From the NCBI GenBank assembly GCA_963727625.1, contig CAVSHR010000012.1, forward strand, positions 288,001 to 352,000: a stretch of DNA of 64,000 nt, given 5' to 3'. This stretch comes from an uncultured delta proteobacterium. GTDB lineage: Bacteria > Desulfobacterota > Binatia > UBA9968. Below are positions 2,953 to 21,668 of this stretch, in pieces. A model generated the notes under the pieces. It saw only the letters and a list, made by a program, of their open reading frames with translations. It was not told the DNA's origin and ran no database searches. Positions within the stretch are counted from its first letter, which is position 1. The number at the start of each line of letters is the position of its first letter. The position numbers were made by a program, and so were the translations under genes.

Positions 2953-3528
2953 CTAAAGAACATCACCGCAGTAATTTCTATATTCGCAGTCCGCGCAGCG
3001 ATTCCTCACCGGTGTCGGAGGCGGCATCTGCTCACCTTCGATCATTCGACGAATCTCGCCGATAAGTTCGTCCGCTTCCTTCTTCCGCTCCTCGGTCAGA
3101 TCGAAAACCACGGCATCGTTCCGCGGGATGAGATAGACGAATCCTTTCGTGACTTCTCTTTGGTAGCAGTCCTCCAGCAGGCGGGCGTAGCCGCACAACT
3201 GCATCACATGGTTTCTGTGAGGCGTCCCCGTCGTCATCTTGAAATCCACCGGGAACAGTCCCTCCGGGCTATCGATCAAGAGATCCAACTTTCCACTCAA
3301 CCCAAGCCGTTTTGAGCTGACCCAAACGTGAAACTTTCTCGTGCCTTCGGCCAACCGGTATTCACGCAGCTTCCGTCTTTTCTCTAGCTCATCTATTTGC
3401 GCCTCGGCGATCTTCCCCTGCTCCATTTTCCAGGTAGTCTTCTTATTCACCGGCATGCAGTACTGATAGAAGACGACCCTCGGACAGTAAGCGTTCTGTT
3501 TTATGTCGTTGACCCTGAGCGAAATCAT
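2953..3528 (-). CDS. cas4: CRISPR-associated exonuclease Cas4
   Basis: YCPR, GKLD, DFK, QLCGY motifs and C-terminal CxxCxYxxxC Fe-S ligands. Confidence 0.95.
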   Translation of the reverse strand: MISLRVNDIKQNAYCPRVVFYQYCMPVNKKTTWKMEQGKIAEAQIDELEKRRKLREYRLAEGTRKFHVWVSSKRLGLSGKLDLLIDSPEGLFPVDFKMTTGTPHRNHVMQLCGYARLLEDCYQREVTKGFVYLIPRNDAVVFDLTEERKKEADELIGEIRRMIEGEQMPPPTPVRNRCADCEYRNYCGDVL

Positions 3529-3803
3529 ACGGCCGCCGCTTCATCGGTCTTGCCGTTTTCCTTTATCAACCCGTCCTTTACGTCCTTGTGGCAAATCGGC
3601 TGAAGCAGAATCTTGCCGGTATTATGATTGAGTATCGACGTCAGGCGCAAAAACAATTCCTCGCGTTTATTCCGGTTGAGTGTTCCCTGAAACGCGCTGT
3701 ATTGAATGCGCGCCAACCCGTAGTCGAGACAGGTTTCGGAGATTCTCAATCGAATCCTGTCGTCCTCGATGTCGTAAATAACCAGCGTCCTAAGCTCTTC
3801 CAT
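3525..3803 (-). CDS. cas2: CRISPR-associated endoribonuclease Cas2
   Basis: LVIYDIEDDR and RIQYSAF motifs; 92 aa. Confidence 0.96.
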   Translation of the reverse strand: MEELRTLVIYDIEDDRIRLRISETCLDYGLARIQYSAFQGTLNRNKREELFLRLTSILNHNTGKILLQPICHKDVKDGLIKENGKTDEAAAV

Positions 3804-3966: not shown

Positions 3967-5157
3967 TCACCACTTGAAACTGAATGCCTTATATTCCCCC
4001 TCCCCCCGCAGAAACGTAGCCAACCGTCTCGCCTGCATCTGGATGATCGACCTGATCTGATATTGCTTTCCTTGATACGGTTCGGTAGCCACCAGGCGTT
4101 CGATGATCTTCTCCGCGATAGACTTCCTCGTCTCCGCGTCGAGCAAACCTTCTTTCATGCCAATCCTCGTCCCGAGATTTACATAGGCAATCACGGTCCG
4201 ATCCACCACCGGCTGGCGAAACTCTTCGACCATATCCAAGATCAGCGACGGCTTGCCCGGTCGGTCGACGTGGAGGAAACCGGCGAAGGGCTCAAGCCCC
4301 GCGTTGAGCACCGCTCCCCAGACCTGCGAGTAGAGAATGCCGTAGCCGTAGTTTAGCAACGAGTTCACTTCGTCGGTCGCGCCCCGGTGCTCACGGCCAA
4401 AGAATTCCACCCGGTGTCCGATGATCTCCTTGACCGCTTCCCAGTAGATCCGCCCCGCGGTACCTTCCGTTCCCATGATGGTTCCCCTGGCTTCATTGAC
4501 GCAAGTGGCGTCGATGGCCGGGACTTTTTTCCACAGCGCGCGCAGTTGGGCGGCGATGGCGTCGATTCTTTGAAACCGATCTTCCGCTTCGGTTTTTAAA
4601 TATTTCCCGAAGTATCTGAGCAGCCGCTCCTGATTCTTGATCTTGCCGAGCACCACCGCTTTGCAGAACTCCAGGCCCCGCTTGTCGTTGAATGCGAGTA
4701 TCTGCTCGCGCCGCGCTTGCACCGTCGCTGTCAGCATCGGCGAACTCACCATCGCGTAGGGCTTTCCGGTATAATCCAGAAAGCTCAGGCGTATGCCCCT
4801 CGCGCAGACTTCTTCGAGGAAGTCCGATGACATGCTCATGCCCTTCGAACCGACGACGACCTCGTTAATTCGAAAAAACGGGAACTGGTAGATTACGTCC
4901 TTGCCCTTGCGCACCAGCAACCGCTCGCTCTTCTTGCTGAGAAACAAACCATACCCCGACAAGATCAACTGCGAGCCGTCTTCGGATTTCACCAGCGTAA
5001 TGCCCTCGTCGACGCGAATCTCCCGCCCCGGTTCTTCCGGCTCAGGCACCTCCACAGGAATCGGCTCGGCCGCGCCGGTGAATAAATTGAACTGAGCCAC
5101 CGAAACCGGCTTTTGAATTTCCTCCTCATGTAATTCATTCAAAGCTTGGTCAGGCAT
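3967..5157 (-). CDS. cas1: CRISPR-associated integrase Cas1 with acidic N-terminal extension
   Basis: EGTAGRIYW, NSLLNYGY, GFLH, DMVEEFRQPVVDR motifs. Confidence 0.97.
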   Translation of the reverse strand: MPDQALNELHEEEIQKPVSVAQFNLFTGAAEPIPVEVPEPEEPGREIRVDEGITLVKSEDGSQLILSGYGLFLSKKSERLLVRKGKDVIYQFPFFRINEVVVGSKGMSMSSDFLEEVCARGIRLSFLDYTGKPYAMVSSPMLTATVQARREQILAFNDKRGLEFCKAVVLGKIKNQERLLRYFGKYLKTEAEDRFQRIDAIAAQLRALWKKVPAIDATCVNEARGTIMGTEGTAGRIYWEAVKEIIGHRVEFFGREHRGATDEVNSLLNYGYGILYSQVWGAVLNAGLEPFAGFLHVDRPGKPSLILDMVEEFRQPVVDRTVIAYVNLGTRIGMKEGLLDAETRKSIAEKIIERLVATEPYQGKQYQIRSIIQMQARRLATFLRGEGEYKAFSFKW

Positions 5158-5318: not shown

Positions 5319-6384
5319 CTAACTCGTCTCCACGATCTCGTACCAGCCGTTGCCGAACACCGCGTTCTTCCCGACATGCAGGTATTCGCCGAGCTTCAGA
5401 TACGGCAGAAACATTCCAAGATCGCCCTCGAAACTCACTTCGCCGACAAACCGCTGAGATCGTGCTGACTTCGCGCCGGCGCGAGTATCGCGACGACTCT
5501 ACCCAGCGCGTCGCGTCGGACACGGTTTTGACATTCTCCGCCGCTGCGCCGAATGCTTTGAAGTCGATGTCCAATCCTTCGCCGCAATAAAAATAAGACA
5601 GCGCATTGATCCGGTCGCGCAGACGCTTGGCCACTGGCCCAAAGGCCGGCCGCCGCGCCTAGTGACTCCATCCGCCCTGACCAGCGTCGGCGTCGAGAAA
5701 TCGCAGCGCGACACGCGTGACGTTCGCCGCGCCAAGCTGTCGCGACCATGTGGACCCATCGTTGGAATCGTAGGGGCCGACCTGCGTGTCGGCCCTGATA
5801 GGCCCAGTGCGGTGAGTTATCGAACCATTCTGATCCAAGCGACCGCACAAGTCCGCCCACGAGATCGCGTCGGCAGGCGGCCGAACCAAGTTATTTTCTC
5901 TTCGTATAAACCGGCACCGACGTCCCGTCGTGCGCCAGCGTGATCGACGCCAGCCAACTCCACCGGCGCTCGATTCCGGCCCAAGCCCAGCCTGCGAAAG
6001 CTCTTTGAACGTCACGATGAAGTAAGGGAGATAGTCCTTGATCTTTCCCACCAGAACGACATCGAACGACAACCGTTCGCCCGGCAGATACGTTTCCTTC
6101 GTCTCCAGCGGCGGCTTGATGACAAACGGCCGGGGAATATCCCGGTTCTTGCTGATCTTCTCCGACCCCTTCGGCACAAACGGTTGGAACACCGCCGTGT
6201 ACGGACACACGCTCCGCAACTCGCAGGTTTCCGGCTCCCGGCAGTTCGCATGGCACACGATCCGCCGAAACGCGCTGCCGAAACCGCCGCGAATCACGTT
6301 GCCCTTGTTATACGCGGGCATACGCAACGGCGCCTTAGGCTCGAGGTGAAAACGAAAATGCTGGAACGAAATACAGGGCAACAT
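5319..6384 (-). CDS. cas6: Cas6 crRNA processing endoribonuclease (frameshifted as assembled)
   Basis: N-terminal KGNVIRGGFG, Cys cluster CELRSVCPY, PRPFVI; C-terminal G-loop YLHVGKNAVFGNG read in another frame, stop at 5319. Confidence 0.88.
5770..5796 (+). repeat. GTAG-type REP palindrome inside cas6
   Basis: GTAG-GGGCCGAC-CTGCGT-GTCGGCCC-T. Confidence 0.75.
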
Positions 6385-6390
6385 TCCTGG

Positions 6391-6798
6391 TCACTCTTCC
6401 TCGGCGATCAATCTCTCCAGTACCTGTTCACATTCTTCGACAAAGGCTAACACCTCGACTGGGATGGCTTGCGCTTCCTTTCTTGTAACCGTGGAGAAAT
6501 CACCGTAATCGCTCTTCTGCCGCTTCTCGAAAGCGCGGGGCAACGCCTTAGCCGTATCCGCCTTAATCAGTCCAGACTTAACGAAATGCTTCTGGAACAG
6601 AGTGATCACCCCGCTGTGTCTCGATCAGTCCACCTCGGTCAGCGCCAAAAGGGACCGAGCCGCATAGAACACCGCGTAATAGAAGCGATTCACCGCGCCC
6701 ATGAAAGCGCTCTTGGTCAGCAGATGCTCGCCTTCCGCAAAAGTTTCCTTAGCACGGCCGAGACGATGGCGCGCGAGCTTTTCAAGTTCCCGCTTCAC
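6391..6798 (-). pseudogene. HEPN-domain protein with in-frame TGA at 6625-6627
   Basis: AVNRFYYAVFYAA...VD*SRHSGVITLF...KRQKSDY; both ORF pieces are in one frame; GTGA overlap with the MNT gene. Confidence 0.8.
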
Positions 6799-7142
6799 AG
6801 CGAAATCCTTTCTTTCGCAATCGCTCGAAGAAAAGGCGTAATGCTCCACACCGGATCGGAGAGAGTTGAGCGGTCAATGACCCGCGGCGAGATATAGACG
6901 TCATGCTTGAGGTTGACATCGAACGCGATGTCCAGAACCCGATCCTCGGTCTCCAGGCCGTTCCGATTCACGACGACGAGCACATCGATGTCGGAATCCG
7001 GTTGATCTCTTCCCGTGGCCTTGGAACCGAAGAGTTTCGCCTCAAGCAAGTTTTTCCCTAGAGCGGATCGCAAACTCCGCAAGAATTCCTCCAGCGCCGC
7101 CGCATCGCTGGATTTCAGCTTCAAACGTCGAGTCATGTTCAT
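6795..7142 (-). CDS. Minimal nucleotidyltransferase (MNT) antitoxin
   Basis: LFGSKATG...SDIDVLVV motif; adjacent HEPN gene. Confidence 0.9.
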   Translation of the reverse strand: MNMTRRLKLKSSDAAALEEFLRSLRSALGKNLLEAKLFGSKATGRDQPDSDIDVLVVVNRNGLETEDRVLDIAFDVNLKHDVYISPRVIDRSTLSDPVWSITPFLRAIAKERISL

Positions 7143-7564
7143 GTCCTTCCCATTGCGATGGATGGAAACCAGCCTGATGCCTTTTCCGTTTCCATGTTTT
7201 TCCCGTGCGGCGGGCTGGAAAACTAGCCCGTTCCGCTTTCGCGATCTCCTTTACGTGCCCTGGTTTTCCCCACCGTTACCTCTCCCGACAATAGCGCTGC
7301 GATATCGCAAACGACCCTATCGAGGCGTCTGTTTGCCAGGCGACGCTCCGGATAGCGCAGCCCCATTTCACCCGCGTTCCGGCTGCCGTTAAACAGGCGG
7401 ATGATTTCGATCTTGCGCCACGTTCTCATCGGAAACTCCGGCGCCACCTGTTATAATTCGACTTCGAAAGCCGCCTCTATCCAAGCGACTTTCTCAAACA
7501 TTTGGGCCGAGCGGTATTTGCCGATCTCGGTAGCAAAAGCTATATTGTCTTGGAGGATCTCTCG

Positions 7565-7828
7565 ATGGCCAAAGTAATGGTTTCCATCCCCGACGACGTT
7601 TTGAAAAAAGTCGATAGCACCGCGAAAACCCAGCGCCGCTCTCGCACAGAAGTCATTCGCGACGCGCTGCGCGCGCAAATGAGCAAGCAACGGGAAAATC
7701 ACGGCAAGTGGCAAAAAGCCCTGGCTCCGCTGCGGAAGCTCGAACGGCAGTGGATCGGCCAGTGGGATTCGACCGACATCATTCGCTACTACAGGGATAC
7801 CCGCTATGGCCGGGAAAATCGTTATTGA
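7565..7828 (+). CDS. Ribbon-helix-helix (CopG-like) antitoxin
   Basis: MAKVMVSIPDDVLKKVD...SRTEVIRDALR; GGAGG RBS; overlaps a PIN toxin gene. Confidence 0.85.
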   Translation: MAKVMVSIPDDVLKKVDSTAKTQRRSRTEVIRDALRAQMSKQRENHGKWQKALAPLRKLERQWIGQWDSTDIIRYYRDTRYGRENRY

Positions 7829-8240
7829 CACATCAGTCCTGATCAAATGGATAAAGACTAAAGATGAGGAATTGCTCGCCGAGGCTCGTCGCCTTCTGAA
7901 GCAAGTGGAAACAAAAGCTCTCACCGTCCACGTCCCTGCGCTTCTGTTATACGAAATCGGCAACATCCTTCTTATCAAAACCGACCTCGATCCGGATGGC
8001 TTGGAAAAAGCCGTTGACGATCTCGAGGCTCTACCATTTATCGTCGCTCCGCCAGCAACGCCCCTTCTACGTCGCGCCAGCCGCGTTGGAAAAGAGCACG
8101 GCCTGACCTTTTACGATGCTTCATTTCTCGCGCTCGCCGTCGAGTTGGATTGCCCACTGGTGACCGCCGACCGCCATTTTTTCGACCGCACTAAGTCCCT
8201 GCCGCGTGTTCGCCATCTCTCCAAGGTCGGCACCCTCTAA
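7806..8240 (+). CDS. vapC: VapC family PIN-domain toxin
   Basis: IVIDTSVLIKW, E, YDA, LVTAD acidic PIN residues. Confidence 0.9.
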   Translation: MAGKIVIDTSVLIKWIKTKDEELLAEARRLLKQVETKALTVHVPALLLYEIGNILLIKTDLDPDGLEKAVDDLEALPFIVAPPATPLLRRASRVGKEHGLTFYDASFLALAVELDCPLVTADRHFFDRTKSLPRVRHLSKVGTL

Positions 8241-8322
8241 AGTTCGGCATACGACAAACGATCCGGGAATACCAATACAGTGCCCTGTCCTACTGTTGCC
8301 TGTTGCCTCACGCCTCTATCCA

Positions 8323-8511
8323 TCACACACGATCCGCCCTGCCTGTGCCGACACGGCAGACAGGCGAAACATGCTGCCAAAACCGCCGCGAATCACGTTG
8401 CCCTTGTTGTACCTGCCTGTGCGTCGCACGCAGACAGGCGGGCATGTGCAACGGCGCTTTGGGCTCCAGGTGGAAGCGTAAATGAGCAAACGAAAAACCA
8501 GTAATCATCAC
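8323..8511 (-). pseudogene. Second, truncated copy of the cas6 5' end interrupted by two palindromic insertions
   Basis: HLRFHLEPKAPLHMP and aatcacgttgcccttgt match the start of cas6 (6255-6384); CCTGCCTGT...CAGACAGG palindromes at about 8338-8364 and 8411-8438. Confidence 0.8.
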
Positions 8512-8566
8512 CGTTGCCTACGTTCGTGAGTTTGGGTACACTTTTTTCCAAACGGAGGAAATTTTT

Positions 8567-8818
8567 ATGTCAGTTACCCAACTGACCGCAAAAGGGCAAA
8601 TTTTAGTACCCAAACACCTGCGACGTAAACTTGGGCTCAAACCCGGCGGCAAGGTGCATCTCGACGAAGAAGAAGGACGATTAGTCCTCACCCCGGTTCC
8701 TCCTGATCCCATCGAGGCGGCCACGGGTTTTTTAAAGGGCCGATTTTCTCTGACTCAAGATCTCCGCCGTGAACACCGCGAAGAGGCGCGCCGTGAGCGA
8801 AAAGCTCGTTCTCGATAG
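8567..8818 (+). CDS. AbrB/MazE/SpoVT-family antitoxin
   Basis: QLTAKGQILVPKHLRRKLGLKPG motif. Confidence 0.9.
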   Translation: MSVTQLTAKGQILVPKHLRRKLGLKPGGKVHLDEEEGRLVLTPVPPDPIEAATGFLKGRFSLTQDLRREHREEARRERKARSR

Positions 8819-9200
8819 TTTTGCCCTCGTCAGTCTCTTTCATCGCGAACCCGGCTGGCAGGTCGTCCAAAAGGCTCTCTACGATCAAGACAAATCGCGC
8901 GCCCGCGCCGTCCTCAGCTGGATCAACTGGGGCGAGTTTTACTACATCGTCAAGCGACGCGTCGGCGTCGCCAAGACGATGGACGCGCTCCGTCTCCTCT
9001 AACAACTGCCCGTCGACCTCTTTCCGGTAGACCACCCGTTGGTCCGAGCCGCAGCGGAAATCAAAAGCGAACACGCACTCTCCTACGCCGACGCTTTTTG
9101 CGTTGCCACCGCCCAACGCCTCGACGCCACCGTGTTAACCAACAACCCCGAGTTCGAGTCGGTCGAAAACCTGATCAAAATCCGCTGGCTGACCAAATAA
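8793..9200 (+). pseudogene. VapC PIN toxin with in-frame TAA at 9000-9002
   Basis: LVLDSFAL...GEFYY...LL*QLPV...LSYADAFCVATA...LTNNPEF; reading frame continues to TAA at 9200. Confidence 0.8.
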
Positions 9201-9335
9201 CCGGCTCCAGCCGATCTTCGCCGAACAATTACGCACCTCTACGCCTCTAGTCACGTCGCACGCAATTCGTCACTCACGAGCACGAACACGGCCTTTGATC
9301 CCTCCGCCGAAACGCGCTCCCAAACCCGCCTCGAA

Positions 9336-11336
9336 TCACATTACCCTTGTTGCCTCTTTTGTTCTTTTCCAAAGCTCCAAAAGCAACAATGCCGCTCCGT
9401 CGAAGGCGACGATATATCTCCCCGCCTCAAAGACCGCTAACCGCCAATCCAACTGGGATTCGACCTCCACCTTCGGCACGACCGTGAAGATATGATTTTC
9501 CCGTGCCATGAGATCCGAAACGGGTGTTGACTCACCGTCCTGGTAGAGTCGCAACTGTGGCCACTTCTGTGTCTCGTGGATCATGCCGCAGTCGTCGTCA
9601 CTGAATATCTCGCTGGCATGCACCCGGCGGTACTTTCCGATCCCCTTGATTGTCAGCATATCCAACTTATTGTTCCAAGTGAGTTCCACGGCACGCTTCA
9701 GGAGCGTGGCCAGGTCAATGTCATATTCGCCCAGATTCCATTCCTTGCGCCGGCGCTGCTCCATGAAGTCATGAATCCTGATACTTGGTAGCGATGTCCG
9801 GAAGCGGTTCAGCCGGCGGTACACATCAAGCCAGTGGGCGCTTTTCTTCCCAGCCGCACACCGCTCAAACGCGCCTTTGGCCTGTAAGTTCTTATCCGGA
9901 CATCCGACGCGCTCCGCAAAGTCGGCCAGAATAGCATCGATCTTCTCGCGCAGCTTGGAAATTAATTCCGGTTTCACGTTTCGGTCTTTCTGAACTGTTG
10001 CGATCAGATTCTCCCCCTGGGCTCTGACCGTTGTCATGCCACTTTCGGTAGTTACAAACCAAGGGTATGCACTTGCCGAAGGGTACCAGGCATAGACGCG
10101 CTCCTCGAAAGTGGCTCGATCAATCGCGGCCGGCAAAGTACTCATCCCCTGAAAGGCGTTGGGTGGGACCAGAACAATCGCCTTTCCTGGCCCATGACGA
10201 CCCACGCGGCCGAACCGCTGGAGGAACGAAGCCGCTTCCAAAGCCTCGAAGAAAAGATAATCGCAGCGAAAGTCCACCCCCACCTCGATGGCTGAGGTTC
10301 CGAGCGCCAAGAGTTTGCCTCTGGTGTCCCTTATAGCCCGGTGCGGAGCCCTCTGATGATCGCCAGCGAGTTCCGGGTAAAACCCGACTCCACCAGCCGA
10401 TCTTCCAGACGGATGGCGTTCAGAACCGAATTAACGATAACCACCGCCGGCAGGTAGTCCTCATCAGGGATGTCGCTACGCAACCTTTCGAGTTCAGGCC
10501 TAAGATCGACAATTAGAGAAAGGAGAATTTCAATCGGGTCCCCACCCGTAAGTTGGATCGGCTCGACCTCGACGGAATGGACCGCCGTGCGCGAGCACCC
10601 AGATGCAGAATACGTTTCGATATGCGAGTCAATTACCGTCGGACTGCTCGCCCGGTCCAACAGTAAGCGGACTTGCGGATGCGGTGTCGCGGAGAGCAAA
10701 ACTAACCGCCGGAAGATCCCAAACCCGCGGGCAAGTGCAACCATAGCAAGGGCATGGGCCAGCTCTACGCCCTGATAAAGGTGGAACTCATCCAGAATCA
10801 ACGTCTCGTAGCGCCTCAGCGCCTCAAAGGGCTCGGCGTGATACCGAAGCCCCAGGATAAGAAACAAAATATCGGGATTGGTAAAGATGATCTTGGGCTT
10901 GTCCGGATCGAAAAGCCGTCGCAACGTTTCACCCCGACTTTTGCAGTGCATCACATCCTGCCATTGATCCAGAAGGTTGCCGTCCACAGGAATCAGGACG
11001 TGATCTGCGCGGCTGTATAGCTCGGCTCGATCAGAGGCATGCCACATTTCCGGCAGCCACACGAGCGGCTCGATTCCGTCTTCCATCGCAAACTTCGCCA
11101 CAGCTCGCACCTGATCCCTCAAAAGCTCATTAGTGGGATATACCCCTACCGCCCCCTCGCGCCGCTTCAGTACCGGCAACATCGCCGCCCGCGTCTTGCC
11201 GGTTCCCGTCTTCGCCGCCAGCAATATTGTTGGGATGCTTCTCCCATCCCTCCCACATCGCCACTTGGTGCGGATAGAGTGGCGAATGCGACGCCGGATG
11301 ATCGATCAAGGCAAGGCGAAGGTCACTCACTCGCAT
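9336..11336 (-). CDS. cas3: Type I-D helicase Cas3' (no HD domain), two frameshifts as assembled
   Basis: LYPHQ, AKTGTGKT, YPTNEL, DEFH, LSAT, GTSAIEVGVD, QRFGRVGR helicase motifs. Confidence 0.9.
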
Positions 11337-11355
11337 TGGACAAACTCGCTCAATC

Positions 11356-12190
11356 TTACGAAATAGAAACGGTCACTTTACCGCCTCCAAGACTTTTCTG
11401 GCCTCCCAAAACTTCGACTTTATTCAAGGCGGTGCGAGAACCTCGTTCAGCAGAAAGAGCTGCCGTTTCGCATCATCAGGTTCCGTCCAATACTTGAGCC
11501 AAACGTCCACCTCAACCCCACCAATGGTCCGACATCGACCGAATGCCGCGCCTTGACGCTCCTGAAATATCAGGAGTTCGCCGCTGAAGACTGATCCTGG
11601 TTTCACTTGTTCCCCTGTAACAATGGCGCCTGGCGCTGCCGTCTGAGATTTACAATTATGCGAATCCGCGTCTGGTCAATGCGCCACTCACCGGGTAAGG
11701 GAAACAAGTTCGGAATGCGCAAATAACCTTCCAGACCTGTCGCTCCAAAAAAGTATGACGGTGGACATAGACCATTTTGTGAAACTTGGACTTTGTCATC
11801 CTCAACCCTAATCTCTGAATGTTCACGTCGGTAGCCTTTGGTAAAAAGATCCTGTTCTGCCTTCGAAGGACGTGGAGCCGGGATTGACGGCTTGAGTAAG
11901 TCGGTTTGATTGCCGATTAGTCCAAGGCTACCCGTCAAAACATCCTTCTTCTGAATAAAAAGTTGCTCCACCTGTTGCCGAAACGCACCTTTAAAAGATG
12001 ACGCAGGTATCACAGGCTGACCGTCTACGGTGAAAACCGGCTGTTTTTTCTCCGTCAGAGGAGAGGGTGTCCCTCCGACATGTAAAAAGGACCCATCGGC
12101 TACAACAATCTTAAGTGGTAAAAGAAAGACTTTCTGGTTACCCAATTCCTTGACATCTGGCAAGCTTGTTAACTTTTCGATGGCTGCCAT
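11356..12190 (-). CDS. Cas7-group RAMP (Csm3-like), frameshifted as assembled
   Basis: LHVGG, PVIPASSFKGAFR, FFGA; C-terminal G-loop LGGQKSLGGGKV read in another frame, stop at 11356. Confidence 0.82.
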
Positions 12191-12759
12191 TTTAGCACCT
12201 CCACAATTTGGGTGAGTGAATCGAGCTTACGCACGAAGAAGGCAATTTCGAGGAAATCTACGTGTTGTTCATAGAGTCCTTGAACGACTTGAAACAATGA
12301 CGTATGAGCTTGACGGTCTCGGTCGTTCTTCTCTTTGTGAATTTTGTAAAGAAAGAACTGCTCGACAGTGGTTCGATTGTGTCCCTCGATAACCCTTCCA
12401 TAGTCATCAAGTTCGTTCTTTGAGAGGTTGGAAAGGAGCGGACCGAAATTATTCAGCTGATCCACAAGGTTTCGGACTAATGGAGACTCGTTGTTAACAT
12501 GCGTCTTCAACCCCAAGAGCACTCGTTTGGCATCTTCCCAATGTCTTTTCTTCGTGTTGTCTCGCTCGCTATTGATACGAATAGCTATCGTCTTTTCTGC
12601 GGAATCTAAGATCGCGAAAGCCATAGCCTTATCATTCCGTCGTAAAGCTTCACGGAACTCCGACCACTTCTCCTTGTTTACGAGTTCTTGTGGCATCCAA
12701 AAGATCCGTCGGTCATTGAGTACCCGCCGAATTGCCGCCTCAAGGGGGTTAGCGGTCAT
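12169..12759 (-). CDS. Putative alpha-helical small subunit (Cas11/Csx26-like) of the type III module
   Basis: Charged, helical-looking ~196 aa protein overlapping both flanking RAMP genes; assignment is positional. Confidence 0.5.
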   Translation of the reverse strand: MTANPLEAAIRRVLNDRRIFWMPQELVNKEKWSEFREALRRNDKAMAFAILDSAEKTIAIRINSERDNTKKRHWEDAKRVLLGLKTHVNNESPLVRNLVDQLNNFGPLLSNLSKNELDDYGRVIEGHNRTTVEQFFLYKIHKEKNDRDRQAHTSLFQVVQGLYEQHVDFLEIAFFVRKLDSLTQIVEVLKWQPSKS

Positions 12760-13420
12760 AGGTATATTCCTCCCCAATCAAGAAATCCGGGCCGCTCAAA
12801 ATAGTATCAGCGAACAGCGCACGCTCATATCGTCCACCAACGCGGTTTGAGTCCGGTCGGAATAGATAGCTGTAGCAAGGCCGGACTAAATCTTGTGCCA
12901 GGTCGATCCCGAAAGCTGGAGCATCGGTTTCCCGCAGGTGTCCGCGTAGATACCCCACTCGCCGTATTGGCGCGACCTCTTCGACATAGTCAAGCGAGCA
13001 TTGCCCGAATCCCTTTGACCTCAGTGCTCCCAGCGTCACGGACCAGGGACCTTCGCCTAGTGAAAAGACAGTCTTGGCCTCTGGAGTGGCGGCGACATAT
13101 AAGTCCCCTTCGATCTGTGTTCGCCCTGTCGCCGGAATGAGGTGCTCTACGGTTAGTGGTAATTTGGCTGTCAGGAGGCACACATCGAACGGCGCATATG
13201 TGAAAATTTCCTTGCGGTAACTTGCCGGTTGGAAAAAGCCGATAGCGACGGTTTCTTTCAGACCAAAATGTTCATAGAAACAGCCCATTAGAGTCGAAGT
13301 CGGCAAGGTTTCCACACAGGGACGAAACGTTCCTTTTTTAACACGTTCTCCAATCACCACAGCTTGAGTAGTGAGTCGCAGACGGATGAACGTAGGTAAC
13401 GGAGTGCGAGCATTAGGCAT
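12749..13420 (-). CDS. Cas5-group RAMP of the type III module
   Basis: LPTSTLMG N-terminal RAMP motif and LGALRSKGFG G-loop mid-protein. Confidence 0.72.
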   Translation of the reverse strand: MPNARTPLPTFIRLRLTTQAVVIGERVKKGTFRPCVETLPTSTLMGCFYEHFGLKETVAIGFFQPASYRKEIFTYAPFDVCLLTAKLPLTVEHLIPATGRTQIEGDLYVAATPEAKTVFSLGEGPWSVTLGALRSKGFGQCSLDYVEEVAPIRRVGYLRGHLRETDAPAFGIDLAQDLVRPCYSYLFRPDSNRVGGRYERALFADTILSGPDFLIGEEYTYDR

Positions 13421-15466
13421 GGAGCACTCCACCACGCTGCATATTGGTGCCAACCAGGCGATAAAAGTCTAAGACCTGACGAGGCTGAGTCGGTGAAACA
13501 CCATTAGTTCGTGAATCTGTGGAAAACGCCGTCGTTGTTCCAATGCCTGAACCAGTGCGGTCATCTCTCCGCCCTGCGCTTCGATGTCTGCAAGACGATG
13601 GAGAAAATGACTAAGCCGCTCACCAGTAAGTTTGTTCCTAAGAATCATATAGTGGTCGATAGTTAGGGCCACTTGGCGGATTCCCGGCTGTTGAATGCAG
13701 ATCACAGTACCGGGCTGCTGTAGCTCTAAGAAGAAGCTCCAGTGCTCATGGTAGGGATACTTGGGATTTCCCAAGCTCACGGAGATACGGATCGGACAGT
13801 CCGCGACGCATTCAGGAAAGTGAGACCGTAAAAGCTGGACGAAGCGGTCCAAGACCGCTCCCAGCGTCTCAGAGCTATCTAAACGAATGATTCCCAGTTC
13901 GAGGTATCCTGAGATGGGGAAGAGCAGGGTTTCGCCCAACTTCAGCAGCGAGGTCCCGCCACTGTCCATCAGGTTCTCCAGAAAATGTCTGAACTCTTGG
14001 AGAAACTCCTTATACTCCTTCACGAATTCCATCTCGGCCGCTAAGGGACGGAAGCCATCCTTGAGGTGCTGTTTATCCTCGGGCGTTACGTCGTCCATTC
14101 CCGGGCCTGTGTCTACATAAGCCTCGAAAAGGCGCTGCAGACTAGAGAGCAGAAGTCTTTGATCAAGCGAAACCTTCAGCCATGCCGCCGCAGGGAATCC
14201 CGTCTCTTCCCAGCGAGCATAAGTGCTGGCTGGCTCGCCTAGTAATCGTATCTCTCGACAGGACTCACACAGCCATTCCCTCACCTGATCTTTGAGGAAC
14301 TCCCACCCCTGACGTTGCTGGCACAGGTCGCAGAGTGGAGGCTCAAGTAAGGGCTCCAAGTCCGGAGAAACGGCAATATGCTTCAACTTGAGATACCGTC
14401 CACCATCCGTGGGCTCTCCCGGAAATTTGTTCTGAAGCTGGTTCCGCACCCGCTCACCGGTGCTCGTTAGGAGGTTAAGTTCGGCTTCCAGCTCTTCACA
14501 CTCGATCCAAAAGCCTTTTTCCCATAGGGGGCGTAACACCTCTCGCAGGGCCAGGTGATTCTCTCGGGCAGAAAGAAACAGACGAAATCGTCCGTGTGGA
14601 AAAGAACCGCGTATGGCTGACGCTCGGCGTCACCGTACGTTCGTTGGCCAGTTATGATTTCATCAATTTGCCGGTGCCGCAGTTCCAGGACATTGAGATC
14701 TTGAAGTCGAACAAGAGATTGGGGAAATCGAACAAGACACTTGATGATACGGAAGACCCATTTGCCATGCACTGTTTCTTGCTTTGTGCCAAGTAATCCA
14801 CCAACAGCCTCGCGAAGTGTGGCAACAGACTGTTGATCGTAGACGAGGTAGGGCGTCCCAGTGTCGGCGTGACCCATGGAGATATACTGGTTGACGACAC
14901 GAAAGATCTTTCCCGAGAGTTCTAGATGAACTCGGAGCGGAATGAAATTGCTCGGTGGTGATTTATCTTCTGGTGTGAGACGCAACTCGTGGTGAAAGCG
15001 TGCGAAAAAATCGGACGGTGAGGTGTACTGATCGAAGGACAGCATCATCCCTCTCAAATCATTCGTTGTCTTGAACGCTGCCCAGTTGAGCCCTTTCTGT
15101 TGTTCCTGAGGGAAGAATTGCGGTCGCCAGAGGAGATGTACACCTTCGCCTCTTATTTTCGGCCCTTTCACCTCGATCCGACTAACCGATGCTGCAGTGC
15201 CATCAGCGATCTTCGTTAGAAGGATCAGGGCCTTTTGTTCCGTAGTTGCGGTACATTGCAAGCTATAAAAGGGCTGGTCAGGTTTAAGCTGATCAGACCA
15301 AACAGCCCACCAACTTGAAGCAGATGGTGGTGAAACGCCAAGTGCAGTCGAGTCTATGTCATGGACCGTCTGGCGTTTCGACATTTGGCCAGATGTTCGG
15401 TAGACATTCCACGTCCATCAGCTTACCGATGTCATGAAGCTCAGCGACAAATGGCAAGTCGGTCAT
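13413..15466 (-). CDS. cas10: Divergent type III Cas10 large subunit (HD motif, Zn finger, no GGDD), frameshifted as assembled
   Basis: Start MTDLPFVAELHDIGKL (not in ORF track), PEDKSPPSNFIPLRVHL, LCDLC...LCESC, IRISVSLG..KYP; about 685 codons. Confidence 0.78.
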
Positions 15467-16245
15467 TAGGCTTTGCTCCTTCGACGTTTAGGCCTCTCTG
15501 GCGCCTCCCATAGCTTTGAGTCGGGTAACTGTCCTGTATCTGTGAACCTTCTCGGGACATGTACCCGGTGCTCACCAGCGAACACGAACCAGTCCTTCTG
15601 GATCTCAGCGACACGAAAGATCAGGTGTGGGGGAATAGGCAGCGGGTCGTACGAGACGATCTCTCCCTGGACGTCTAGCGGGTTAACCGCGTGAGTGGGG
15701 CGAATTACGTGATCGGTAAAGACAGCCACTGCTCCCGTGATCTCCTGCCAGTCGAGGCGGATCGGGCAGCCTTTCTTACCAAGTCTCACGACGGAAGGTG
15801 GCCGGAATGAGCCTCGGGTAAAGAGGTAGAAGCTAAAACCGGGCAGGTCACCAGCGGCCGCACCGTCGTGCCACACAGGATCGAGAACGAGGCGCCATCC
15901 CAGCGCCGGGCTATTGCTCCCGCGGGGAGCGTCGTCAGTTCTAAGAGTGCGTGAGTTAATGGCGTTTTGGGTGAGACGGGTTCGAGCCGATAGCGTTTGC
16001 GGCCGAGCCGGAGTGGCGTAGGCTTGCATGGCATTAAGGTCCTCTGCGTAACGCGGCGTACTCCCTGTATAGATTCCATACGAATAACCGCAGAGTGCGT
16101 AACTCAGGGCGTAGTTGTGAATCAACGGCAGGGTGGCGGCGGTCTTTGAGATCTCAAATGACGAAAACCACAGGTAATCGTGGTTATAAAGACGGCCCGC
16201 GTAGAGCCGAATTCCCTGAGCGCTGAGGTCAACAGTATCGCTCAT
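15466..16245 (-). CDS. csc1: Type I-D Cas5 (Csc1)
   Basis: IHNYALSYAL, YATPA, VRLGKK, VNPLD motifs. Confidence 0.9.
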   Translation of the reverse strand: MSDTVDLSAQGIRLYAGRLYNHDYLWFSSFEISKTAATLPLIHNYALSYALCGYSYGIYTGSTPRYAEDLNAMQAYATPARPQTLSARTRLTQNAINSRTLRTDDAPRGSNSPALGWRLVLDPVWHDGAAAGDLPGFSFYLFTRGSFRPPSVVRLGKKGCPIRLDWQEITGAVAVFTDHVIRPTHAVNPLDVQGEIVSYDPLPIPPHLIFRVAEIQKDWFVFAGEHRVHVPRRFTDTGQLPDSKLWEAPERPKRRRSKA

Positions 16246-17201
16246 GATGCACTCAAAACTTTCTCCCCTTGGGCTCTACGATACTCGGTAATGTCGTTGT
16301 ATGCCTTGTCGAGGAAAGCCCGATCAAGAGGCGTTTGAGCGCACTCATGGACTAGAGTGTCTACTTCGGCAGGTTCGAGTACCAAAAGGCGATCGGATTC
16401 CCGGCGAGCTCTTTGTATTTTTGCTCTAGAAGCTTCTTCAGAGCTGCGGAGTCCAAACCGTCTTTCTGGTCGTAAAGTTCAAGCGTTAATTCCAGAGGCG
16501 TGATCATTTCCTCCCATCCGGCAATAACACCAAAAAATGTATTCCGGCAGTCGCCGCCGATGCGTGATTCGGCACCATAGCTCTTGCAAGCCAGCAGGGT
16601 TTTCACCGTAAGAACCAATTCTTCTTGCGTTACCCCCTTCAGGGTCACAATGGAAGGAAAAAGGCTTGCGGGTTTGACGACATTTCGACTACCCAACGCC
16701 TGACCGGTTGTCTGGTCCAATTCGCTGACAGCGTTAAAGGTAATCTCTTCCGAGATCTGATCGAATGGAAGGAGAGAGAAGGCGGTCGAATATTCGATCC
16801 TGTGTTTGATGTTCGCTTCTTGGCTAAGCGCGGTCGCGCCGTACAGTCCGCAGCGCGGACACCGGAGACAAAGATTGTCCTTCAGATAGCACCCTTCGCC
16901 GTTCTTTCCGGATGGAATCTCCTTCCCAGTAGCAGCCGTGGCGGACCGAAGCAGGTATTCCATTTCGCGGGATTCGGCGGCTTTCTGTTTGGAGCCAAGA
17001 AAAGCAACCCGCTTCGCTGTCGTACCCCGATCCGCCTCGGAAAGGGGCGTGTTGACAGAATTCAGCTCCGCGTTTCTTCCGTCCTCAGCACGGTATAGTC
17101 GAGGATTCCCATAAGAGAATAAGCTGGACGGTTTCAGCTCCAATCAGCGGCCGTGGCCTGTCGATCAAGTAATTCTTCAGCTTCTCTGCCACAATGGTCA
17201 T
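16242..17201 (-). CDS. csc2: Type I-D Cas7 (Csc2), frameshifted as assembled
   Basis: SKQKAAESR, CLRCPRCGLYG, FPSIVTL, YGAESR motifs; ATG at 17201 after GAGGAGG; ATGA overlap with csc1. Confidence 0.88.
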
Positions 17202-17809
17202 TTAGTCCTCCTCGTCAGTAGTGACACCCTGTGACTCCCAGAACACAGTAACGTCCTGCTGCTTCGCCGTAGCCTTCTTGCTCTTCGATCCCTCAGCTTT
17301 CCGCGGAAGGTAAAGGTCATCAAAAGCAACGATTTGCTCCCCCCCCCAGGTCTCCGAAAGCTTCGCCTCGGTATCGTACTTGTTACGAACAAATCCTATC
17401 CATGCCTGGCGTCGCATCTCCTTTGATTCGAGCTCCGTTTACGAAGGTCGTAATAGAGCCCGTAGTCAAGCCGGTCGAGCAGGCGATCATGCGCCGTGAT
17501 GGGAACTTCGGTGAGTAAATTGACTATCCGGTCGATTCCCTCTTCGAGTGCTTGAAGTCCTGCCGGAGTCGGGCCCTGTTGTCGCTTCGTGGACACGGAC
17601 GGCGTAACCTTTGAGAGAGGCGGGATCGCGCCGCCTCTTCACTTCACTCAGGATCTTTCCAACCGGTCCCATAAGGCCATGCTTCGAGCAGTTGACTTCC
17701 GAGGCACTTCATCGAGGTAGCGAGTCAACGCCTCTCGCGCTGAGTCGATTTTGGGTTGGACGGTCTCGATATCAAAAGGCTTGGTCTGGACGGTAATGGG
17801 AACTCTCAC
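17202..17809 (-). CDS. Putative stand-alone small subunit Cas11d, frameshifted as assembled
   Basis: AAGGAGGT RBS then GTG overlapping the cas10d TGA; helical protein ..SLKGYAVRVHE..LLDRLDYGLYY; positional assignment. Confidence 0.55.
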
Positions 17810-20458
17810 GGGCGCACCTCCTTTTCCCGGGCTCTGTGAAAGGCTGGCAACTGCTCGATTAAACTAATCTAACGCGGCGTAAGTGATGTGTCGCCTTTTT
17901 CCTCAATACGACGGGCGAGCTTTTCCGGAGGGTCCATCGTAAGAATCTGATAAAGAGCGGAGCGAGCGGGCAGACCGGTATCTCGCACCAACAGGCTTGC
18001 CGCGCCGATCGCGGAGAGCCAACGTTTTGCCTCACCGATGGGCAGCCAGTCGTAGCCCACAAGAGAGCGGACCGCCGGGATCGGAGGCACGTAGGCTGCC
18101 CCTAGTCCGCCTCGGAAGTCCACTGGTTCATCCGTCTTGTGAATCGCCACAGAGGCGTCAAAGACAAGGCTCAGGAGCAAGGCGACATGGAGCCGCCGCA
18201 GCCCTCGGCTCGTTCCGATTCGTCGTTACCGGACGCGATTTCGTAACTAAGCGGGATGAAGATCAAGTTAGGAGTCTCGCAAATTAGATGTATCGTTTCA
18301 TAGAGGCGGAAGACCTCCCGACGAATCGCCCTGAACTCCTGCTGATTAATTCGATTTGCGATGAGGGCCTCAACAGCATCGTCCCATGTCCCGAAGGATT
18401 GACCAGTAGCAAGATTAAGGGCTTCGAAGTCGTTATCGAACTCCTCTTTAAGCCGTCTCATCGCCTCTCGTCGTCTTTTCTGCTGGGTGTCGGCGGTAAA
18501 CCGGTAACTGAAGAGCGAGAGCAGTTCCTCGGGCTTTAAAGAAAAGGGGTCACGCTCCTTTAAGTGACGGGCTGCTTGATCAGTGAAACCGAGCGAAAAT
18601 CCGAACTCCAGGTTGCCGGTTTCACCTCGCATCTGCCCTTTGGCTGCCTCCACCCATCCCTGGACTTTGCTGACCAACTGCTCCCCTTTCCCTGGCCCCA
18701 GGTTGAGTCGGGGTAAAAGCGTGATCATTTCCGCCGGACGACTCCCGAGAAGTATCTGGAGGAGGAGCCGCTCGTAGTAGCAAGTGACACAGACCATGAT
18801 GTAACCGAAGGAGCCATGCGCTATCCGCGGTTAGTGTGCGTCTGTGGATTCTCGATGAAGTCGGCCGAGGCTTTGATTCCATCATTATGATCGAAAGAAG
18901 CGTTACAGATCGGACACAGGTAAATTCCCTTCGCGCTCTCTTTTCCAGCAAAGGGCTTTGACTCTGTGTAGTGGCTTAGTTGCTGTTGAGCAATAGCTTG
19001 AACATTACCACCGTCTGTGGGCTTGAGGAGATCCTTGGATGAATGCTGTGGCCATGTCCTGAGATAACTTATCTCTCGGCGATGGTCGGTTAATTGCTAA
19101 ATAGACCTTCTGGACGATAGCATCGAGTAGCTCAATCAATACCTGCACGCGAATCTCGTTTGGAAGCTCTGCGACCTTCGTAACTTGAGAGTGGCCTACC
19201 GCCGCACCTGGCAGCGCCCAGAAGTAGTCGATAGTCTTTCGCATGTCCTTGGCTGGCATGATGGTGGATGTGGACTGGAGCGCAGCCCAACTGCCAGACC
19301 CGAAGTTTTCCTCGTAGAGCTTCTTGGCTAGGACAGCGCCATCCTCACCAACAACCTCGACCTTGTCCGGGTCAACATGGCCTTGAAAAACTTGAAGACG
19401 AGCATCTCGGGCTGGGCTACGGAGATACGAGCCGCTTCTTCCTCAACCTGTGCATCCGTGGATTTGGTGGTTCGACCCTGGAGTTTCCAGTAGTCCTCAA
19501 CCACTTTGCGTTTTGCCGGCAGCTTCTTCTTGGCGAAGCTTTGCGGACTGATTTTGCTTGCGGCACTGCGGAGGTACTGCCGGGATTCGCTGAAAGCGAA
19601 GAGATCCGGCTTTGGTAGGATGTTGCCCGTAGGGCTTCGAACCATCAGTGGGGACATATCCCTTCTGATGGCCCGGTCAATTACCATCTTGAGGCTGTCC
19701 CCAATCTCCTCCGCCGTGGGCATATTATGGTGATCGCTGGGGTCGGCTGCATATAAAGTGGCGTTGGAGAAATAGAGGGAGAGGCTTCCACCCTTGTTGC
19801 TGGAAAGTGCTTCGGGCGGCGTGGTGAAGGAATGCCGTCGAGACGCCCCGCACTATGGTTTCGTGAGCTGCTACGATGAGATGTCGACCCAGCGCGGGAT
19901 CATTTTTCAACACGTCCTCGGCATCGGCAACCGTAGCAGCGGAACAGAACTGGTCAATAGCTTTGACCAAATAGGCCAGTGTGAGAAAGCGATCCGACCC
20001 GCCACTAAGCATCGCTTCGAAGATCTCCCCGTCACTTCTTCCTGGCCGGTTGTAGTAGAGTTCACGCAGTGCGCCATGATCCGCTCAACCGCTTCACCTT
20101 GTTTCGAAAATCCTAATGTCGCACAAACCTCCGGTATCACTGCTCTGGTCAACTCGGGAAGAATGTCCGGCACCCAACGGTCCGGCCGGGGGTCCCGGAT
20201 GTAGACCTGCCAAGCGTCAGTTTCTTTACCGATATCGTGGGCGAGCACGGCGATTACCAGGACTGCTTCTTCGTTTTCACTTAGGCTATAGTGTCGCGGG
20301 CTTCCCAGGATCGGCAGAAGCTCAAGGAGAACGTCAAGCTCAATCAGGCTGTGCTCAAAGAGGCTCTGTTCGTAGCCACGGCGCTTGGCGAGTTTCTCTT
20401 TCCAGCCACGCGCCTGCATCCACGCTGCCGCTTTAGTCATGATTTCCTGTCGATCCAT
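17806..20458 (-). CDS. csc3: Type I-D large subunit Cas10d (Csc3) with N-terminal HD nuclease, many frameshifts as assembled
   Basis: QSLFEHSL...AHDIGKE HD motif, HETIVRGVSTAFLH, Zn-finger CxxC pieces (VCPIC, VCVTCYYE); upstream of csc2 and csc1. Confidence 0.8.
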
Positions 20459-20482
20459 TTTCCACACCCAAGAAAAGGCTGC

Positions 20483-21122: not shown

Positions 21123-21668
21123 CTAGCGTTTGCCATAACGCGCCGGTTTTTCCTCGACCAGGAATCCGATCTTCTTTTTCTTAGGCTCCGGCGGCGTCAT
21201 GAGCTGGCGTATGGCCTCGAATAGGGACCTAATGTGCATGTCATGGCTTTCGAACTTGCGCTCCAGGGCCTCGAGCTTGTGAGCCAAGTCCTTGTTCGAC
21301 AAAATCATGTCCCTTAGCCGGACGAAGGCACGCATGATTTCGATATTGATTGCAACAGCCCGCTCACTCTTCAGCACGCTCGATAACATGGCGACTCCCT
21401 GCTCGGTGAAAACGTAAGGCAGGTACCGCCGCCCGCCGCGCCGATTCTTTGAGATCACAATTTGTGATCTCAAAAGGTTAGCTTCTTCATCCGACAGTTG
21501 GAACATAAAATCCGATGGAAATCGATTAGAGTTTCGCTTTACGGCTTGTACTAGAACACGGGTTTCAACCCCGTAGAGAACTGCTAGATCGGTGTCCAGC
21601 ATAACTTTATGACCGCGGACCAATAGTATGAGTCGCTCAATCTGCTCGGTTGGGATTATGCCTGCCAT
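21123..21668 (-). CDS. ORF6N (KilA-N-like) DNA-binding domain protein
   Basis: [48 protein letters not shown]. Confidence 0.92.

Follow-up and report, generated by a model that had tools for sequence, protein, structure and literature searches.

We have analysed a stretch of 64,000 nucleotides, here called the window, from contig CAVSHR010000012.1 (positions 288,001 to 352,000 of the forward strand) of the assembly GCA_963727625.1, which represents an uncultured delta proteobacterium (Desulfobacterota; Binatia; UBA9968). Its minus strand carries a CRISPR operon with the order cas10d-cas11d-csc2-csc1-(cas10f-cas5f-cas11f-cas7f)-cas3', followed by toxin-antitoxin-like genes and then by cas6-cas1-cas2-cas4 and the array. 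The outer effector genes are those of a type I-D system. The four genes in brackets are a type III-F module, composed of a Cas10 with an HD domain and without a cyclase motif, a Cas5, a small subunit and a single Cas7. One operon with one adaptation module and one array here contains two full effector-complex gene sets. A first-pass annotation of the same DNA, based on its letters and its open reading frames (ORFs), had proposed this gene order, and profile matches and tblastn bear it out. Two further loci serve as intact references throughout: L006, in a metagenome-assembled genome (MAG) of a Desulfobacteraceae bacterium, and L020, a metagenome contig.

The cassette is tightly embedded between its neighbours. 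Upstream, the csc1 stop codon overlaps the ATG of cas10f in a TAATG (minus strand 15468-15464), with the cas10f frame beginning MTDLPFVAELHDIGK. The inner genes overlap each other at 13416-13453, 12752-12777 and 12172-12190, and downstream a gap of 19 nt separates the cas7f stop codon (TAA, 11358-11356) from the cas3' ATG at 11336. The coupling of cas10 to cas5d and the mutual overlaps had been read in the same way before, and the distance to cas3' had been given as 20 bp. Within the window, the cassette itself holds no cas6, no adaptation gene and no array.

All four inner genes are matched by PADLOC III-F models. The large-subunit gene cas10f (13413..15466, minus strand, as are all genes of the operon) encodes the HD motif ELHDIGK at its start, followed by a zinc finger and no GGDD motif. 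Its fragments match the Cas10a/Cas10f model with E 5e-29 and 2e-47, while the protein P0001, which is ~80% identical over the C-terminal part, and the intact L020 orthologue reach E 1e-81 and E 2.6e-86, respectively. The open frames cas5f (12749..13453) and cas11f (12169..12777), the latter encoding the small subunit, match Cas5_IIIf (E 6e-40) and Cas11f (E 7e-31). The backbone subunit gene cas7f (11356..12190) matches Cas7_IIIf (E 5e-39 and 8e-15; E 1.2e-70 for the L020 orthologue) and the Pfam RAMPs. The cassette encodes one Cas7, one Cas5 and one Cas11, each of a III-F family, and a second RAMP gene is absent. NCBIfam and Pfam give no match for cas10f, cas5f and cas11f, and recognise only cas7f of the four, as a RAMP.

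A word-based search returned 38 relatives of Cas10f, mostly of ~665 aa, unnamed or termed 'hypothetical' and without a precomputed Pfam domain; the few members with an organism name come from bacteria and archaea. When Cas10f profiles were compared with the sequences of solved structures, only a weak zinc-finger match to III-D Cas10 was obtained (E 3e-3 and 4e-4), hence a fold search was needed. An AlphaFold (AF2) model of the intact L020 Cas10f, based on a 33-row alignment, has a predicted local distance difference test (pLDDT) score of 84 and a predicted template modelling (pTM) score of 0.90. Its Foldseek matches in the PDB, to rank 36, are all chains or complexes of Csm1, Cmr2 and III-D Cas10 (best E 1.9e-9). 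The profile searches and the structure prediction that the first-pass annotation had suggested agree in assigning the inner genes to III-F and a Cas10 fold to the large subunit. The motif LHDIGK is present in 38 of 45 Cas10f relatives (the window C-terminal fragment not counted); among the seven others, five are cut at a contig end or are late-start calls and two are the distant L002 and L003. A GGDD-type cyclase motif is absent anywhere in 43 of the 45 relatives and in the window fragment, the two remaining matches being stray, and the four-cysteine zinc finger is kept across the family. Together with the PADLOC and Foldseek matches, this upholds the earlier recognition of a III-F layout with an inactive cyclase. 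The short N-terminus of P0001 had suggested that the nested clade lost the HD motif. This idea was rejected, since the true start lies further upstream and the window, L004, L005, L006 and L020 all encode ELHDIGK. As a separate observation, a T-D-D lies at the turn of a conserved beta-hairpin, which is located ahead of the zinc finger within the first palm-like domain (L020 Cas10f residues 286-299, corresponding to window ~14560-14620), and D293 is invariant in 33 sequences.

The Cas7f profile matches III-D Cas7 paralogues as well as Csm3 and Cmr4 chains. In the best of these, a low-scoring hidden Markov model (HMM) alignment to a III-D Cas7, a nearly invariant Lys stands opposite the Asp of a D-x-P loop, the loop in which Csm3 has its RNA-cleaving Asp. 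It gives a weak hint that RNA is not cut by Cas7f. Among the operon genes there is no ancillary effector with a CARF or SAVED domain; the rest of the window was not scanned for such genes.

The I-D half is equally recognisable, the assignments of Csc2, Csc1 and Cas3' all exceeding the TIGRFAM cut-offs. The gene csc2 (cas7d; 16254..17198) matches TIGR03157 with 106.8 bits (cut-off 38) and Pfam Csc2, the open frame csc1 (cas5d; 15466..16245) matches TIGR03159 with 70 bits (cut-off 41.4) and PADLOC Cas5d, and an N-terminal fragment of cas3' (9336..11336) matches TIGR03158 with 92.1 bits (cut-off 69.1). In the window, this I-D helicase consists of the DEAD and Cas3 C-terminal domains (Cas3-like_C_2) only, without an HD domain, and its L020 counterpart matches Cas3d models. 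The large-subunit gene cas10d (17809..20467) was delineated by tblastn with the intact Cas10d proteins of L020 and L006. It shows matches to an N-terminal HD domain and to the PADLOC Cas10d family, the latter in pieces, and the L020 orthologue reaches 1114 bits. The small subunit is encoded by a separate gene, cas11d (17202..17809; tblastn with L020 Cas11d), which overlaps the end of a short cas10d (~870 aa) in the window as well as in L006 (L006:6624-7259) and L020 (L020:4049-4675). L020 Cas11d matches PADLOC Cas11d with E 4e-77. Since PADLOC has full-length models for the I-D variant with a separate cas11d, its curators have seen such loci. The same Cas10d variant is found in none of the 400 other genomes sampled from the phylum.

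Scans with a Cas10f alignment gave 16 loci from genomes and 38 from metagenomes, in addition to two distant loci from the sample of 400 other genomes of the phylum. The synteny search proposed in the first-pass annotation was rewarded: the nested order cas10d-cas11d-csc2-csc1, III-F cassette, cas3', and further downstream cas1-cas2-cas4, recurs in L006 and L020, where all effector genes are open (tblastn with the intact L006 proteins). It recurs in part in L005, a Nitrospira MAG, with csc2-csc1-cas10f at a contig end and the downstream side cut off. L006 has an additional ORF between csc1 and cas10f and an intact cas6, while in L020 no cas6 was found between cas3' and cas1 (12520-14528; tblastn with L006 Cas6, E 1e-4). 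In L020 the gap to either neighbour of the cassette is -4 nt, and L005 shows the same value on the upstream side. These 4-nt overlaps couple the L020 cassette translationally to both neighbours, so that it forms one transcription unit with the I-D genes. The Cas10f proteins of the nested loci are 61-80% identical to each other and thus do not stem from one recent copy. In a Cas10f tree of 46 rows (the window C-terminal fragment and 45 loci of 500 aa or more; 11 shorter ones were left out), the four I-D-hosted copies fall within one clade of six, with a Shimodaira-Hasegawa-like approximate likelihood ratio test (SH-aLRT) support of 99. The other two members are L021, with the cassette between cas1 and cas2, and L004, in a I-B operon, which is the sister of L020 (SH-aLRT 100). 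The same order on other contigs means that the nesting is neither a misassembly nor unique to the window genome. The nesting of a III-F cassette in a I-D operon is genuine and recurrent.

III-F cassettes are also hosted by I-A and I-B loci, and the arrangement in the window is one case, with a I-D host, of this general habit. ORFs were called and clustered in all 56 loci, and the recurrent neighbours, named by PADLOC, are Cas3, two kinds of Cas8b-Cas7b-Cas5b, a Cas8a-Cas7-Cas5a set, Cas6, Cas4, Cas1 and Cas2. After merging of loci with Cas10f at least 98% identical, 47 distinct loci remained, of which 18 have type I effector or cas3 genes within the stretch fetched. For 27 distinct loci at least 3 kb of flank was available on one side; 16 of these have type I-A, I-B or I-D effector or cas3 genes, three have only cas6 or cas1-cas2, and eight have no recognised cas gene, several of the latter with restriction-modification genes instead. 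The position of the cassette varies. It follows cas3 in L004, L009, L039, L043 and L045 and precedes it in L010, L048 and the I-D loci, but is also found between cas7b and cas5b (L007), cas3 and cas8a (L043) or cas6 and cas1 (L008), and after cas4 (L019). In two loci it separates cas1 and cas2 of the adaptation module (L021:166-5629, L025:3124-8900), and in two others it lies between the mod and res genes of a type III restriction-modification system (L028:2298-8279, L029:193-8735), with a 4-nt overlap with the methyltransferase gene. Most loci that reach far enough have one array, with a repeat ending in ACTGAAAG or ACTGAAAC, or in ATTGAAAC or ATTGAAAT; a single array with the repeat end ACTGAAAG or ATTGAAAC is present in the window, L004, L006, L008, L020, L043 and others.

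Profile matches place both halves of the operon in catalogued families, and we read it as no new subtype. The nesting is real and recurrent, and the earlier suggestion that this is the best candidate for a new system fails in the sense of a new subtype. The cassette shares with III-F the Cas10 with an HD domain, the Cas5, the Cas11 and the single Cas7, and it has no cyclase motif, cas6 or adaptation gene; among the genes of the operon there is no ancillary effector. It differs by its position inside a I-D operon with an adjacent array, in a comparison that did not include the reference III-F locus itself. According to the passages covered of the 2025 classification, most III-F loci have no arrays and III-H is distantly related to III-F (PMC12669027). 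With the Synechocystis type of I-D, as far as described in the covered part of PMC10212523, the operon shares a Cas10d with an HD domain, Csc2, Csc1, an HD-less Cas3', cas6, cas1, cas2 and cas4. However, Cas11d of that type is produced from an internal start within cas10d (same part of PMC10212523) instead of from a separate gene, and cas3' here lies downstream of csc1 and the inserted III-F cassette. The pair of I-F and III-B systems of Marinomonas follows the same logic, since there the crRNAs (CRISPR RNAs) of a type I system can serve a type III system as a back-up against escape, in the passages covered of PMC5576922. Yet, the Marinomonas systems described there are separate loci, whereas the type III module of the present locus lies within its type I operon and is a reduced, array-less, cyclase-less III-F. 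An inactivated cyclase, a retained Cas10 HD domain, the loss of signalling and a supply of crRNAs from other loci are also shared with the reduced type III derivatives III-G, III-H and IV-C (covered passages of PMC12669027 and PMC13676074). Those are different protein families, and the same passages describe no nesting in type I operons for them. The covered part of the 2026 paper on IV-C proposes III-F as an intermediate in the reduction towards type IV (PMC13676074). The searchable literature treats III-F by comparative genomics only, reporting no experiments, structure or target, and contains no description of III-F cassettes inside type I operons; the 2020 classification, supplements of the papers or the data files of PMC12669027 may record such nesting.

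The genes required for crRNA production and spacer acquisition follow downstream. The cas6 gene (~5331..6384) is broken and was recognised by the PADLOC Cas6 model in three pieces and by tblastn with L006 Cas6. The adaptation genes cas1 (3967-5157; TIGR00287, 250 bits), cas2 (3528-3803; TIGR01573) and cas4 (2953-3528; TIGR00372) are open. The array (543-2847, minus strand) comprises 31 identical 37-nt repeats and one degenerate terminal repeat, and in the minus-strand reading the 3' end of the repeat is ...ACTGAAAG. The degenerate repeat is located at the end distant from cas4, which fits transcription of the array on the strand of the cas genes. The single adaptation module and single array at the locus had been noted in the first-pass annotation; a second array and a second cas1 are present on another contig of the genome. 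Inside the array, Tandem Repeats Finder reports a period of 363 nt with 2.1 copies at 993-1756, a duplicated block of about five spacers.

We propose, and consider fairly probable, that this is a composite locus in which a III-F cassette has been accommodated in a I-D operon and two complexes draw on a common Cas6, adaptation module and array. Cas6 would process the RNA transcribed from the single array, giving crRNAs with a ACUGAAAG handle of 8 nt, and these crRNAs, by analogy with Cas6-dependent class 1 systems and type III complexes, would be loaded into two distinct complexes. The I-D Cascade (Cas10d, Cas11d, Cas7d and Cas5d) would find double-stranded DNA flanked by a protospacer adjacent motif (PAM) and work with Cas3'. 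The second complex, small and Csm-like, would consist of Cas10f, Cas5f, Cas11f and several Cas7f subunits, and crRNA-guided binding of its target, most likely a transcript, may switch on the HD nuclease of Cas10f. This complex would make no cyclic oligoadenylate, because a GGDD motif is lacking and the operon shows no ancillary effector gene, and it would probably leave the target RNA uncut, considering the Lys at the catalytic Asp position of Cas7 in a weak alignment. The benefit for the host would be a second layer of interference from the same spacers, independent of the I-D PAM.

Several points weigh against this proposal. The sharing of crRNAs is plausible and is deduced from gene content only, and the searchable literature holds no expression, binding or interference data for any III-F system. 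The cas6 gene is broken in the window, not found in L020 and intact only in L006, thus even the intact exemplars differ. The target of III-F is listed as 'DNA?' in a review table (PMC8036902, in the part covered), and III-F may sense either RNA or DNA. The proposal does not account for the conserved TDD hairpin in a protein said to be without cyclase activity, and the Asp-to-Lys reading of Cas7f is weak, as it leans on one low-scoring HMM alignment and on presumed catalytic positions. Finally, the window genes are broken, for which assembly error and recent decay are about evenly balanced as causes.

Indeed, when the window frames are read against the intact L020 and L006 proteins, at least 19 single-base frame switches appear: six in cas10d, at least two in cas11d, three in csc2 (near 17106, 17068 and 16394), three in cas10f (near 15400, 14560 and 13481), two in cas7f (near 11640 and 11432), two in cas3' (near 11215 and 10345) and at least one in cas6. 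Further break sites lie at 17436, 18212, 18824, 19037, 19372, 19777 and 20064. Frameshifts had been foreseen in the first-pass annotation, though not in this number, and its 'one full cas6' does not hold, since this gene has an in-frame TAG besides its frame switch. In addition, cas10d has a stop ~17 codons ahead of the expected end. As assembled, the only open interference and adaptation genes are csc1, cas5f, cas11f, cas1, cas2 and cas4, and with so many frame breaks the window copy cannot work. The fraction covered by stop-to-stop ORFs of 200 aa or more is 0.20 in the cas10d stretch versus a genome median of 0.83 (653 ten-kb bins), so the breaks are local and not genome-wide. Contigs from four public metagenome runs (four studies), 88-99% identical to the window, cover ~15.5-20.5 kb and thereby the I-D part; they include almost nothing of 11.7-15.0 kb, none of them spans that stretch, and they are silent on the cassette in those relatives. 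These relatives are intact at all ten comparable sites, where they differ from the window by one base (the six cas10d switches, the three of csc2 and one of cas11d), which indicates that close relatives have open genes. At eight of these ten sites the window is short of a base, and homopolymer runs are found at only about half of the break sites. A true relic, with the interference genes of both modules and cas6 as pseudogenes next to an intact-looking array and adaptation genes, is a serious contender that we place just short of an even chance. It would account for the confinement of the switches to 5.3-20.5 kb, for the TAG in cas6 and for the early stop in cas10d. Neutral decay would fit the ratio of indels to substitutions relative to the relatives' contigs (109 substitutions and 6 gaps in one piece of 2.2 kb), and recent decay would equally fit the clean state of the repeats and short genes. 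On the other hand, nearly all lesions are single-base indels and the base is missing in the window in 9 of 11 listed one-base differences. Such a deletion bias is typical of long-read consensus errors, and with the near-absence of other lesions it points to errors of this kind where coverage was poor. Moreover, a contig 99.3% identical over 606 nt differs by two indels and only four substitutions, larger deletions are absent, and csc1, cas5f, cas11f, cas1, cas2, cas4 and all 31 repeats are clean. The locally poor assembly with its many frame breaks could also be taken to mean that two separate loci were joined artificially. We judge this highly improbable, as three independent contigs from other organisms (L005, L006 and L020) show the same order with intact genes and overlapping stop and start codons, and the window junctions themselves are tight; misjoined junctions, which the first-pass annotation had named as a possible flaw, can be dismissed. 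Whatever their cause, the frame breaks leave the composite-locus proposal untouched because it rests on L006 and L020, and the broken window copy adds little beyond pointing to the arrangement.

Two other readings concern the role of the cassette. In one, which we regard as unlikely, the III-F complex is wired to the type I helicase: it would sense the target and recruit Cas3' (or Cas3 in I-A and I-B hosts), so that the Cas10f HD domain and Cas3' would act like the Cas10d HD domain and Cas3' of I-D. By map reading, 10 of the 19 loci associated with type I (the window and 18 others) have the cassette directly adjoining cas3 or cas3'; both sides of cas3 are represented, as are I-A, I-B and I-D hosts. 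Furthermore, the layout of Cas10f, an HD domain and an inactive palm, is that described for Cas10d in the covered part of PMC10212523, where the Cas10d HD domain is probably the docking site of Cas3'. The related loci are, however, not independent and may reflect only about five separate events, and cas3 lies at module borders, where an insertion does least harm. Nine of the 19 are not shown beside cas3 (L007, L008, L013, L014, L018, L019, L040, L049 and L005, the last cut off downstream), and 8 of the 27 informative loci have no recognised cas gene at all. A predicted complex of L020 Cas3' with the Cas10f HD domain (residues 1-235) scored 0.00, which is no verdict either way. Use of the Cas3' helicase by the III-F complex and an exchange of subunits, both raised in the first-pass annotation, have no support so far. 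In the other reading, to which we give a low probability, the cassette is chiefly a mobile hitch-hiker, or a modulator that depends on the crRNAs of its type I host. It might compete for these crRNAs, or silence instead of destroying, without having to be a cooperative second effector. Many insertion positions (L007, L043, L021, L025, L028, L029), the occurrence of close Cas10f relatives in different host subtypes (the I-D locus L020 as sister of the I-B locus L004, at the support given above) and the conserved inverted repeats at both cassette ends in one subclade agree with mobility. Yet, the HD motif, the zinc finger and all four genes are conserved in bacteria and archaea, as would be expected if an active effector is under selection. 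A search beside the cassettes found neither a transposase nor an integron integrase (none of five genomes above the cut-off), and no relatives occur in viral or plasmid collections. A broader version combines these elements: III-F would be a portable four-gene guest effector without a crRNA supply of its own, settling in type I operons (I-A, I-B, I-D) with a preference for sites next to cas3 or cas3', and using the Cas6 and crRNAs of the host and, in its boldest form, the host helicase. We put it forward as a speculation that is probably wrong in this full form. If it were true, the Cas10f HD domain with Cas3' would represent, in living form, the step that has been proposed to lead from type III to type I-D.

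If III-F cassettes regularly sit in type I operons with a single Cas6, adaptation module and array, as the composite-locus proposal holds for the I-D case, III-F would have a natural source of crRNAs. Compact operons are at hand for testing, L006 with all parts intact and L020 with all but cas6. The question raised is whether the same guides serve both a DNA-targeting Cascade and a reduced Csm-like complex, and whether there is cross-talk with the type I helicase. This also bears on the origin of type I from type III-like ancestors, in which I-D is usually placed as an intermediate.

A different Cas10f subclade, which does not include the window (L009, L011, L016, L034, L036, L037, L039, L051 and L054), has conserved non-coding DNA that brackets the cassette. 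It forms an inverted repeat across the four genes, with GTTAGGCGA..TTTCGCTTGGCGGC upstream and the complement downstream. A stretch of ~95 nt bounded by GCCTAAC and GTTAAGC or GTTAGGC follows, and also precedes, the inverted repeat (flank sites L034:8850-8910 and 12913-13065; L054:3104-3255). Flanks of the GCCTAAC/GTTAAGC type are absent from the window, L006 and L020, and Rfam has no family for the conserved flanks. In L034 and L054 the stretch forms a long hairpin after the cassette, with compensatory changes between both loci and fold z values of -2.3 and -3.9, while six other folds of the corresponding stretches, from six loci, are not stable. The attC site of integrons is an imperfect hairpin bounded by RYYYAAC and GTTRRRY, and the L034 and L054 hairpins resemble it. 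A search for the integron integrase (TIGR02249) found only generic tyrosine recombinases below the cut-off in all five genomes searched, and the same in all 14 control genomes, and no Cas10f relatives were found in viral-contig or plasmid collections. In the speculative guest-effector reading, the inverted repeats and attC-like hairpins of this one clade would hint at cassette-type recombination as a means of spreading.

The remaining observations concern the surroundings of the operon. The ~3 kb between cas3' and cas6 holds small toxin-antitoxin-like ORFs (6469-9200), including a MntA-like nucleotidyltransferase antitoxin at 6798-7142. On the plus strand, two abutting stop-to-stop frames (8754-9002 and 9003-9200) look like one gene with an in-frame stop. 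The second CRISPR array of the genome lies on contig C9 (G000 contig C9:284574-287820) and comprises 24 repeats of a different sequence; it has its own cas1, in a frame of 550 aa, and ten ORFs on its far side have no PADLOC match. Just upstream of cas10d in the window, an ORF of 181 aa (21123-21668, minus strand) shares 56% identity with the ORF that L006 carries between csc1 and cas10f (8930-9514), and this L006 ORF in turn matches the PADLOC candidate family PDC-S05.

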